From a virus (Duplodnaviria > Caudoviricetes): 64,000 nucleotides of DNA. The stretch is taken from the IMG/VR virus record IMGVR_UViG_3300029305_004678, positions 32,001-96,000 of that record, one strand, 5' to 3'. The translations under genes and the position numbers were made by a program. The notes below the pieces were generated by a model that did not search any database, had not been told where the DNA came from, and saw only the letters and a list, made by a program, of their open reading frames with translations. Below, piece by piece: positions 1,571 to 3,657 of this stretch; position 1 is the first letter of the stretch, and each line of letters begins with the position of its first letter.

Positions 1571-3244
1571 TTAGAAAACAGGTGCAGAGATTTTTTCTTT
1601 ATCCGCATCTAGACACAATGTCAAACTATATAAGCTCTGAATAGCTTCTTTATCAGAAGTTCTAACACCCTTACCACCAAGATTAAAGTAGTGAGCTTTA
1701 GATTTAAGCTGTTCAGCAAGCTCTGCATTTGTCTCTTCTGTAAAGGCTCCCTTTACGGTTACCTGGTCACCATCATAATCTCCACCTATTCCATCTAGAT
1801 ATAGATTACTAATATTCAAAGTATCAATAAATTTATTAGAAGTATTAGTACCAATATCTTCTTGACGAATATAGGGATAATTTTTATAGAATTTACTACC
1901 TACAACCATAGGTTCAGTTCTTGTGGTAGAAGCTATTTTAATCTTGGTTGGAAACTGATTAAAATAAGTGTCTATAGGATACCTGGTAATCAGTATATGT
2001 TTATCTTTTGTAGCTTCTACTGCTGCTTGATAGAGTATATCACACCAAGTTAAGTCTCGTTCCATTATAGGCATCTTACCTATATCAGATTTTGCATACT
2101 CTTCAGCAGTCATATTATATCCTTTAAATCTATAGCGTACAGTAATACCTTCTACTGTAGGAACTTCTAAAGGAATAAATCTATTTGAGAAACCTGTCAA
2201 AAATCTATCTATTTCTTTCTTAATTCTTTCATCAGAAAATTCTACTTGATAATCTTTCGGATGTAAATAGGTTATACTCTTATCTTTATTTATATAGGGT
2301 ATAACCGCATCTCCAGAGAACTCATTTTCAAACATTCTTCTCACATGATATACTATGAACGGAAGGAAGTTTGCACAAGCAGATGCTAACGGAAGTACAG
2401 AATAATCGAGATCTGCTTCTACATCCTCTAACCGTTCAACCTTGAGTTCTGGAGCCGATAGAACTAGACGAGTAGCATAGTCTGTTGTTTTGGACATAAC
2501 ACCCTGTCTAATAATACCAAATTTGCCAGGAATAAGATTGCTAGTTTTCTCGCCATTTATAGTAGTACCAGATCCAAACCAGTCGTATATTTGAACAAGA
2601 GTTTCCTGTATACGACCACGAGTAGCAGAAGTTAGATTTAAACCATATTCGGAGGACTCTCTAAGAGCTCTAACAGAGATCAACAAAGACCTATACAATT
2701 CATTGATTGCTCCTAAAGATACTTTGCCTTTATCGTTATTAACGTCTCTATAGAATGCTGGGCATACTATATATTTCTTAATAAACATTTCAGGCTTACC
2801 GATATAGCTCTCTATAAAGTCTACACGCATGTCTCTTTGTTTAGATCCAGTACGCTTAATCTTAATTTTCTTAATATTGTCTCTAAGAAACCTAATACCA
2901 TTATCACCATTTTCCGGATCTTCTTCAAGTTCACCCTTATCATTTATCTTGAAATATTTTATACCATGAACGCATGCTTTAACATTAGAATCAACTTTGC
3001 ACCACATCTTATAAATTAGAGGGTTTAAAAACTCCTCATGAAGATCGATGTATGCAAATGTATTAGCGCGATCATATTTGGTAATTCCAAATATTTCATT
3101 AGATAATAATCCATCAGAGGTAGGAACTGAATTTCGAACGAATGAAATGGGATTGGTAATCTCTTTGAGATCATTGACTTTTACCAGTCTTTCGGGGTCT
3201 ATAAGACTCACTCTAAGGTGATCACCCCTTATTAAATCTGGCAT
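1571..3244 (-). CDS. Phage multisubunit RNA polymerase beta' N-terminal/catalytic subunit (probably virion RNAP)
   Basis: DGLLSNEIFG, TTDYATRLVLS, LITRYP, catalytic GGDYDGDQ, SDKEAIQSLYSLT; start MPDL at 3244 with RBS AGAGGTGA. Confidence 0.92.
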   Translation of the reverse strand: MPDLIRGDHLRVSLIDPERLVKVNDLKEITNPISFVRNSVPTSDGLLSNEIFGITKYDRANTFAYIDLHEEFLNPLIYKMWCKVDSNVKACVHGIKYFKINDKGELEEDPENGDNGIRFLRDNIKKIKIKRTGSKQRDMRVDFIESYIGKPEMFIKKYIVCPAFYRDVNNDKGKVSLGAINELYRSLLISVRALRESSEYGLNLTSATRGRIQETLVQIYDWFGSGTTINGEKTSNLIPGKFGIIRQGVMSKTTDYATRLVLSAPELKVERLEDVEADLDYSVLPLASACANFLPFIVYHVRRMFENEFSGDAVIPYINKDKSITYLHPKDYQVEFSDERIKKEIDRFLTGFSNRFIPLEVPTVEGITVRYRFKGYNMTAEEYAKSDIGKMPIMERDLTWCDILYQAAVEATKDKHILITRYPIDTYFNQFPTKIKIASTTRTEPMVVGSKFYKNYPYIRQEDIGTNTSNKFIDTLNISNLYLDGIGGDYDGDQVTVKGAFTEETNAELAEQLKSKAHYFNLGGKGVRTSDKEAIQSLYSLTLCLDADKEKISAPVF

Positions 3245-3261
3245 ATAAGCATCACCTCTTT

Positions 3262-3273
3262 TATTAATATGTG
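3262..3273 (-). promoter_or_regulatory. Late promoter variant CACA-N6-TA (also 54757); AACT variants at 10881 (+) and 18971 (-)
   Basis: Same spacing and position as the consensus copies. Confidence 0.6.
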
Positions 3274-3300
3274 AATTAAGTGGACAATAAAAGGAAAAAC

Positions 3301-3600
3301 AAAAAAAAAATAGTGGAGAGTGTTGTACACTCTCCATCTACTTCTTTATTGACTTTTCGACATCCCATAGTAGCGATTACGAGGAATACAGTCAATCACC
3401 TCTACAACTACTAATTGCTACGTCACTTTTGGGAACTATTAGTACCTGCGCAGGTAACTGGTTGATGTCACTAGTCCCCATAATGACTTATAATCAACCT
3501 GGTAGGATTTGCTCGTATTTATCGCCTCAATCACCTACCTTTATAGATGAGGCGTTTATTTTGAAGATATAGATATTTCCAATTGAAATATAATACCTTC
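3301..3600 (-). ncRNA. Candidate structured ncRNA: 5' hairpin, three tandem pseudoknots, intrinsic terminator
   Basis: No ORF; own AACA-N6-TG promoter (3600-3611); three stem-loops whose loops pair 6-7 bp with downstream segments; terminator with U10. Confidence 0.7.
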
Positions 3601-3625
3601 AAATATATGTTTATTAATTAATAAT

Positions 3626-3656
3626 AAAAAGGTAGGAATTAAATTCCTACCTTTTT
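3626..3656. terminator. Bidirectional terminator insulating the ncRNA
   Basis: aaaaaggtaggaatt/aattcctaccttttt. Confidence 0.8.
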
Positions 3657-3657
3657 A

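Follow-up and report, generated by a model that had tools for sequence, protein, structure and literature searches.

A small family of putative non-coding RNAs with three consecutive pseudoknots upstream of a beta'-like RNA polymerase gene in uncultured jumbo phages

The stretch of DNA analysed here (the window, 64,000 nucleotides) comprises bases 32,001-96,000 of a 159.8-kb IMG/VR contig, the completeness rating of which (65%) implies a phage genome of about 245 kb. A gene on its minus strand encodes a 557-aa protein that matches PHROG 2986 ('RNA polymerase beta subunit') and contains the invariant motif GDYDGDQ, which resembles the catalytic NADFDGD motif of beta'. Given the match and the motif, the label beta' gene, already used in a preliminary description of this DNA, is reasonable. 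Among beta' proteins that are at least 90% identical (cluster P0125-P0137) the called lengths are 428, 510-513 or 557 aa, so the 3' end of the gene presumably varies among very close phages, perhaps by insertion, split or intron. Upstream of beta' lies a gap (3245-3657) preceded by genes for proteins of 100 and 88 aa to which no function is assigned. According to the preliminary description, this gap encodes an RNA with a promoter and a terminator of its own, folded into a 5' hairpin followed by three pseudoknots. The locus contains the following features.

1571-3244, minus strand: gene for the beta'-like RNA polymerase subunit, 557 aa, downstream of the RNA element
3244-3272, minus strand: late promoter of beta' itself (CACATATTAATA, 15.2 bits), ribosome-binding site AGAGGUGAU and start codon (ATG 3244), all outside the RNA
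3301-3336, minus strand: intrinsic terminator, hairpin UGGAGAGUGU/ACACUCUCCA followed by U10 (3310-3301), the predicted 3' end of the RNA; pair probability 0.98
3348-3425, minus strand: pseudoknot 3, with stems P3a (3421-3412/3379-3370) and P3b (3402-3399/3384-3381)
3396-3390 with 3354-3348, minus strand: K3 of pseudoknot 3, loop AUUGACU with tail AGUCAAU
3425-3420 with 3363-3358, minus strand: closing stem S1 of pseudoknot 3, UGAC(GU) with (AU)GUCG, added here to the model of the preliminary description
3359-3370, minus strand: invariant 3' strand of the third knot, CUAUGGGAUGUC, in which CUAUGGGA is invariant and the next 4 nt, which form the 3' arm of S1, covary
3411-3426, minus strand: invariant 5' strand of the third knot, GUGACGUAGCAAUUAG, in which GUAGCAAUUAG is invariant in nine of nine aligned members
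3430-3499, minus strand: pseudoknot 2, with stems P2a (3499-3493/3466-3460) and P2b (3487-3481/3473-3467)
3480-3474 with 3436-3430, minus strand: K2 of pseudoknot 2, loop UGGGGAC with GUUCCCA
3456-3443, minus strand: small hairpin inserted in pseudoknot 2
3501-3554, minus strand: pseudoknot 1, with stem P1 (3554-3548/3529-3523) and K1, loop GGUAGG (3539-3534) with CCUACC (3506-3501)
3563-3600, minus strand: 5' clamp hairpin H5, GAAGGUAU/AUAUCUUC plus AUAUUUC/GAAAUAU, starting at +1; pair probability 0.99
3600-3611, minus strand: late-type promoter AACA-TATATT-TG (AACATATATTTG), predicted start G3600
3626-3656, minus strand: upstream boundary terminator hairpin, perfect and bidirectional, which ends the preceding 100-aa gene

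All 24 stem and loop motifs named in the preliminary description are present on the minus strand where it had placed them, almost every one of them only once; GAGG and CCUC, of 4 nt each, occur twice. The 10-bp stem P3a is present as well but contains one A.C mismatch. Both of the terminators between which the RNA had been placed were recovered by a consensus scan, which found three sites with 0.1 expected. The upstream one is an inverted repeat (I1) with 20-nt arms that match at 100%; in relatives of the L016/L105 kind its place is held by a differently spelled hairpin. The core of the RNA has a GC content of 0.40 compared with 0.30 in intergenic DNA.

In phage AR9 the late promoter reads AACA-(6N)-T[A/G], and transcription starts at its last base (PMC5312081). 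The sequence at 3611-3600 that had been proposed as the promoter conforms to this formula, and G3600, the start it predicts, is the first base of H5. The late consensus of the present phage, which is enriched upstream of its genes, is AACAT-N3-AATAAA (about 30 sites). Scored with a position weight matrix of the phage's own late promoters, the promoter of the RNA reaches 8.5 bits and ranks 84th among 319,534 positions; it is weaker than typical late promoters of the phage, which mostly reach at least 10 bits, and it ends in TG, not TA. The string AACATATAT[T/A]TG was found in 12 of the 12 loci that extend that far, with differing flanks. Late expression, as claimed in the preliminary description, is predicted from the promoter motif only.

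Promoters of both AR9-like classes, early and late, occur in the phage (e.g. window 1516 (-), 24526 (-) and 12920 (+)). The early class reads TATATTAT-N6-G(A); its core TATATTAT occurs 63 times in the whole contig and the full pattern at approximately a dozen sites. A SpoIIAB-like HATPase unit (626-1486) has an early-type site with one mismatch. An early promoter for the RNA was rejected, as the element contains no match to TATATTAT-N6-G, and so was a promoter of the sigma-70 type, for which only weak 9/12 matches exist.

The RNA had been described as ORF-free, and the longest frame on its strand that starts with ATG, GTG or TTG indeed encodes only 39 aa and has no usable ribosome-binding site. 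The several ORFs of 29-39 aa on the RNA strand of the gap have no Pfam or PHROG match, no usable ribosome-binding site and no homologues, nor are they conserved. On the opposite strand a stop-free frame of 93 codons (window 3291-3572 (+)) runs antisense to almost the entire RNA, a rare length in DNA with such a composition (P = 0.013 in shuffles). It has no start codon with a ribosome-binding site, no real homologue and no Pfam or PHROG match; the three matches obtained with the translated opposite strand are to repetitive proteins and consist of summed weak matches. The frame may be a by-product of the base composition of the RNA. The RNA contains two copies of AGGUGAUUGA, one in pseudoknot 1 (3536-3527) and one in pseudoknot 3 (3401-3392), both on the minus strand, and AGAGGUGAU in pseudoknot 3 is identical to the Shine-Dalgarno region of beta' (3259-3251, minus strand). 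No ORF follows these Shine-Dalgarno-like sequences, and their probability of arising by chance is about 0.01-0.1.

The fold of the window copy was evaluated with single-sequence statistics. With shuffled linkers the three pairings of a loop with a downstream strand have P values of 0.02, 0.01 and 0.05 and are each modest; combined by the Fisher method they give 8e-4. Relative to shuffles the RNA as a whole has a folding z value of -6.3 to -7.9, but most of this excess stems from the 5' hairpin and the terminator; without these two, the 221-nt core reaches z = -2.5 only, and the opposite strand -2.3. In the nested ensemble H5, P1, P2a, P2b and the terminator have probabilities of 0.75-0.99, and the inserted hairpin, P3a and P3b of about 0 in the window copy, because a rival long imperfect hairpin wins; locally its energy is -31.0 kcal/mol compared with -12.6 kcal/mol for the P3 stems, a difference of 18 kcal/mol. 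The nearest-neighbour minimum free energy (MFE) structure thus contradicts pseudoknots 2 and 3. The weak z value of the core, the modest pairing probabilities and the conflict with the MFE render the single sequence suggestive but not decisive. Three other JGI assemblies contain the element with 100% identity, and it is therefore not an assembly artefact; these copies offer no sequence variation.

Sequence variation was provided by the contigs that encode members of the beta' cluster at 90% identity. They contain twelve further loci (labelled L105-L108 and L114-L122), of which the eleven that reach far enough upstream have a gene-free gap of 400-530 nt before beta'. The loci come from independent assemblies and, together with the window, amount to about eight distinct sequences: the window, L105/L116/L117, L107, L118 (= L106), L122, L114/115, L119/121 and L108. 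In all of them the homologue occupies the slot just upstream of beta'. By blastn, the 3' third of the window element (3429-3200) aligns to three loci at 76-78%. In every locus with sufficient upstream sequence, AACATATAT[T/A]TG and then the 5'-terminal hairpin open the gap; every gap contains GUAGCAAUUAG followed at a distance by CUAUGGGA, ends with a GC-rich hairpin and U-run, spelled differently in each homologue, that serves as the terminator, and leads into the promoter and ribosome-binding site of beta'. About eight homologues thus keep promoter, helices and terminator, which bears out the earlier view of a stand-alone non-coding RNA with its own transcription signals.

In nine sequences the order of the helices and the topology of their crossings are the same but the spellings differ. 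H5 has a counterpart of different sequence in every homologue, and four of five counted pairs change on both sides. P1 is spelled CGCCUCA/UGAGGCG, ACCCGC/GCGGGU, ACACCC/GGGUGU, UUCUC/GAGGA or AUCCGGU/ACCGGGU, and K1 GGUAGG/CCUACC, GGCAAG/CUUGCC, GGGCAAG/CUUGUCC or GGCAG/CUGCC; changes on both sides affect three pairs of P1 and two of K1. P2a occurs in five spellings and P2b in four, each with changes on both sides, and P3b in five to six. K3 has six spellings (AUUGACU/AGUCAAU, UGCUGAC/GUCAGCA, GUCAGCA/UGCUGAC, GGCUC/GAGCC, GUUGGC/GUCAAC and GCGAAUA/UAUUCGC), among them a pair in which the strands are swapped: L105 has the loop UGCUGAC and the tail GUCAGCA, L114 the loop GUCAGCA and the tail UGCUGAC. 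S1 (UGAC/GUCR) is 100% paired and changes from C-G to U-A in L108. K2, UGGGGAC/GUUCCCA in the window, is replaced elsewhere by UGAAUUCG with CGAAUUCA or UGAAUUCA at the same relative places; in L108 it was not found. Four of the seven K2 pairs differ between the non-palindromic window version and the others, and each is still a standard pair. As the GAAUUC of the other members is palindromic, the covariation of K2 rests on the comparison of the window with the rest in a hand alignment.

Covariation in syntenic relatives, which had been named as a check in the preliminary description, was formally counted in a plain MAFFT alignment (A9) that was not fitted to the structure, using a model of 60 pairs and 500 shuffles. 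Of the cells, 88.8% were paired compared with 81.8 +/- 0.7% after shuffling, 21 pairs had changed on both sides compared with 8.4 +/- 2.1, and the covariation score was 0.251 compared with 0.146; none of the 500 shuffles reached any of the observed values. When the partners were slid by 1-3 columns, pairing fell to 24-43%. In nine of the ten helices, one or more pairs differ in both partners or in one of them; P3a is largely invariant. The helices had initially been selected by eye, a crude matrix of cognate and non-cognate duplex energies did not discriminate, and, because the members are few and closely related, some of the seemingly independent changes are common by descent. The changes on both sides of P1, K1, P2a, P2b, P3b and K3 in an unfitted alignment are those of H-type pseudoknots; for K2 this assignment is supported only by the hand-aligned comparison of the window with the rest. 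The rival MFE hairpin has no counterpart in the other members, and it is therefore the thermodynamic prediction that is wrong, not the model of the preliminary description, whose hairpin and three consecutive pseudoknots recur in the same crossing order, with compensatory changes, in about eight homologues. At the level of sequence comparison, these results show that the window RNA is a member of a small family that keeps one architecture by means of compensatory mutations. They also illustrate that the MFE of a single sequence can mislead: the optimum contradicted two knots that are supported by evolution.

In contrast to the drifting helices, about 28 nt on both strands of the third knot are invariant, and elsewhere the lineages diverge by more than 40%. 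This patch points to a candidate binding site, and with its approximately 300 nt the RNA is small enough for structure determination.

The family has a narrow distribution. Searches of Rfam 15 at the gathering thresholds gave no match in the 64-kb window and none in L105-L108, in agreement with the earlier remark that no family was recognised; in E-value mode they returned only terminator-like or miRNA-like noise of at most 24 bits, far under the cut-offs. Neither the element nor the L105-type RNA had a blastn match in collections of cultured phages and plasmids, and none was obtained either by blastn or nhmmer against 6 + 80 related viral loci or by BLAST against five whole related records. 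A covariance model (R1) of pseudoknots 1 and 2, based on no other sequence than the window copy, gave no match in 43 whole related records; in hindsight, R1 modelled the most diverged part of the RNA. With a model of the 3' module (R2) all members score 77-94 bits, and L108 40 bits. R2 matches of 19-25 bits in 46 whole related viral records were rejected, as they were found on inspection to lack the P3a stem. Exact 20-22-mers of the element did not occur in metagenome contigs; a single 20-mer in genome contigs was dismissed as a chance match inside an unrelated actinobacterial gene. Five matches of the pattern GTAGCAATTAG-N-CTATGGGA in IMG/VR lie in unrelated small contigs and are unsupported by R2. 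The known range is thus uncultured jumbo phages with a beta' at least 90% identical, always in the same slot, and the RNA is a new family of narrow distribution among the orphan structured phage RNAs.

The slot between the 100-aa gene and beta' is a swap site that is empty in four lineages. In relatives whose beta' is 82% identical (L002/5/7) it measures 72 bp, it is also empty in those with 87-88% identity (L017-19), and the empty slots of the 82-88% relatives span 72-76 bp. Relatives with 78-79% identity (L003/4) carry a small gene, weakly Tad2-like, and L016, a 98% relative, carries a 106-aa gene and a gene for a 69-aa XRE-type helix-turn-helix (HTH) protein together with a mere 3'-end remnant of the RNA. 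The cargo of the slot lies at the following coordinates.

L003:3725-3925, L004:3740-3967, L016:741-1281, L105:1389-1598 and L006:3654-3833

The slot proteins of L003 and L004 are homologous, 66-75 aa long, and match PF11195 (Tad2-like) at E = 2e-4, which is under the cut-off; the gene has no sequence match in the PDB. The 69-aa HTH protein, found in several slots, resembles 'control proteins' of restriction-modification systems in PADLOC (E = 8e-7). Other cargo includes a 106-aa protein without assigned function and a 59-aa reverse-strand ORF. The HTH gene is located just upstream of the RNA in five members and is absent in the others, including the window. As the HTH gene occurs with or without the RNA and the RNA with or without the HTH gene, the two are separable cargo. 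A derivation of the RNA from a slot protein gene was rejected because tblastn revealed no similarity.

In the model we favour, to which we assign a probability of roughly 60%, window 3600 to about 3305 on the minus strand is the gene for a stable non-coding RNA of approximately 295 nt that acts in trans as a folded molecule and the invariant pocket of which binds a protein or a ligand; the mode of binding is pure inference. The RNA would be transcribed late by the non-virion RNA polymerase of the phage, and its paired 5' and 3' ends would render it long-lived. As a compact folded particle it would then act through the pocket of pseudoknot 3 on a protein or small ligand, neither by antisense pairing nor as a leader in cis, and it would be accessory cargo of the hypervariable slot. 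The case for a folded, binding RNA is made by the compensated drift of nearly every helix, approximately 28 nt that are fixed in one knot, and the pairing of both ends. The case for an accessory role is made by the slot, which in relatives houses small regulatory or possibly anti-defence genes; as it is empty there or occupied by a small gene, either XRE-type HTH or weakly Tad2-like, the tuning of infection or of a conflict with the host is likelier than a core function. Its place in this swap site, next to such genes, makes the RNA amenable to study as a possible accessory factor in the conflict between phage and host.

A more specific version, which we regard as doubtful, holds that a new ribonucleoprotein or ligand-sensing device operates through this RNA, the pocket of pseudoknot 3 binding a phage or host protein. 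The partner might be the virion RNA polymerase whose beta' gene always follows the RNA, or else a factor of host defence or translation, and the fast-evolving three knots might form a nuclease-proof scaffold. If so, the slot for accessory genes would contain an RNA of a new class, used by the phage for counter-defence or takeover.

The position of the RNA, always directly upstream of beta' and with a terminator about 60 nt before the ribosome-binding site, recalls a cis leader, i.e. a riboswitch, an attenuator or an antiterminator that binds RNA polymerase and governs read-through of the terminator into beta'. The pocket-like invariant region and the identity of AGAGGUGAU in the RNA with the ribosome-binding site of beta' could be read in the same way. 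A riboswitch or attenuator would lie in the 5' UTR of the gene with which it co-occurs, with no promoter in between. Arguing against a leader is the conserved 15.2-bit late promoter between the terminator and the ribosome-binding site in every relative, a promoter that, like the ribosome-binding site, is kept in relatives with and without the RNA. Moreover, beta' genes of 82-88% identity occur without the RNA, the 98% relative L016 has only the remnant, and there is no conserved alternative pairing for antitermination, all of which makes a cis leader improbable. We consider it equally improbable that the RNA silences a host, competitor or phage transcript by base-pairing, with the invariant strands of 11-12 nt as the seed. 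Short conserved strands in an otherwise fast-drifting RNA would be expected of such a regulator, and the 93-codon stop-free frame on the opposite strand could mark a gene to which the RNA is antisense, but in the predicted fold these strands are paired (S1 and P3a) and the frame yields only the repetitive-protein matches mentioned above. In the phage contig (160 kb), which was covered by the target search, no complementarity exceeds 14 nt, and matches to the invariant strands occur at chance level.

That the RNA is a ribozyme or some other catalytic or mobile RNA, for instance one that cleaves itself or that derives from or assists the group-I-like introns of this genome, seems very unlikely. 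Its architecture is rich in pseudoknots with a small invariant core, the genome contains group-I-intron-like sequences, and a complementarity of 9 nt exists between AGCAAUUAG and CUAAUUGCU, which lies at the 5' edge of two intron-like elements (G000:C1:25041 and 26249, minus strand), but matches of this length occur at chance frequency in the contig, Rfam ribozyme and intron models find nothing even at E <=10, and the RNA is intergenic, not located within a gene. Least probable of all is that the gap has no function as an RNA and consists of recombination filler with incidental hairpins or encodes a very small protein. Hypervariability of the slot, the low core z value and the presence of several short ORFs would be compatible with this possibility. 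It is largely refuted by the covariation count, with changes on one or both sides in nine of ten helices, and is difficult to reconcile with a promoter and 28 nt that are invariant across lineages that diverge by more than 40% elsewhere; the short ORFs are devoid of conservation, ribosome-binding sites and homologues.

Among known RNAs, tmRNA offers an architectural comparison, which the preliminary description had also drawn. Like the arc of pseudoknots PK1-PK4 of tmRNA (SsrA), the window RNA is presumably stable, in a size range of approximately 300-360 nt, and largely a string of consecutive H-type pseudoknots. Unlike tmRNA it has neither a tRNA-like domain nor a reading frame for a tag; ARAGORN detected no tRNA or tmRNA in the window, and the Rfam tmRNA models did not match the RNA even at E <=10. 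The resemblance is architectural only. Type III antitoxins (ToxI) are likewise phage-relevant RNAs composed of pseudoknot units, and an antitoxin mimic was one of the candidate roles put forward in the preliminary description, alongside a packaged, polymerase-associated or nuclease-resistant RNA and a decoy. The window RNA differs from them in that it has no tandem direct repeats, only two direct repeats of 10 nt, none of its three knots is a copy of another, and no ToxN/AbiQ-like gene is located nearby; the neighbouring genes have no toxin or PADLOC match. Both hallmarks of a ToxI-like system, tandem direct repeats and an endoribonuclease toxin gene, are thus missing.

In giant phages with their own RNA polymerases several structured RNAs are coming to light. 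GOLLD (RF01998), ROOL (RF03087) and raiA are among the orphan 'ornate' structured RNAs tied to phages and prophages. The window RNA shares with them that it is an orphan, phage-borne, pseudoknotted and protein-less RNA supported by covariation. It differs in size, approximately 300 nt compared with 500-800 nt, in the absence of any sequence or structure match, and in its confinement to a single slot in the genomes of one narrow clade of phages. Intergenic small RNAs of jumbo phages have been mapped by dRNA-seq or ONT-cappable-seq in AR9 (PMC5312081), 201phi2-1 (PMC11512511) and PA5oct (PMC7318152). These are also short non-coding units between genes, but they are defined by transcript mapping and are mostly without a supported fold, whereas the window RNA is defined by its covarying fold alone. 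With the late units of AR9 it shares the AACA-(6N)-T[A/G] promoter, the intrinsic terminator and a phage that has multisubunit RNA polymerases of its own.

Two further regions of the contig, both outside the window, deserve mention. Group I intron-like sequences are located at G000:C1 24600-25100 and 96760-98680 (window about -7400..-6900 and 64760..66680); they contain the repeated motifs AAUUGCUGG[GA]A..GCUAAUCAGCAGC, AACGACUA and GAUAUAGUC and fold at z = -4.5 to -6.4. The gap at G000:C1:146013-146551 bears no similarity to the RNA element. It is gene-free, has a z value of about -10 on the minus strand and three terminator-like hairpins, and may contain one or two more small RNA units.
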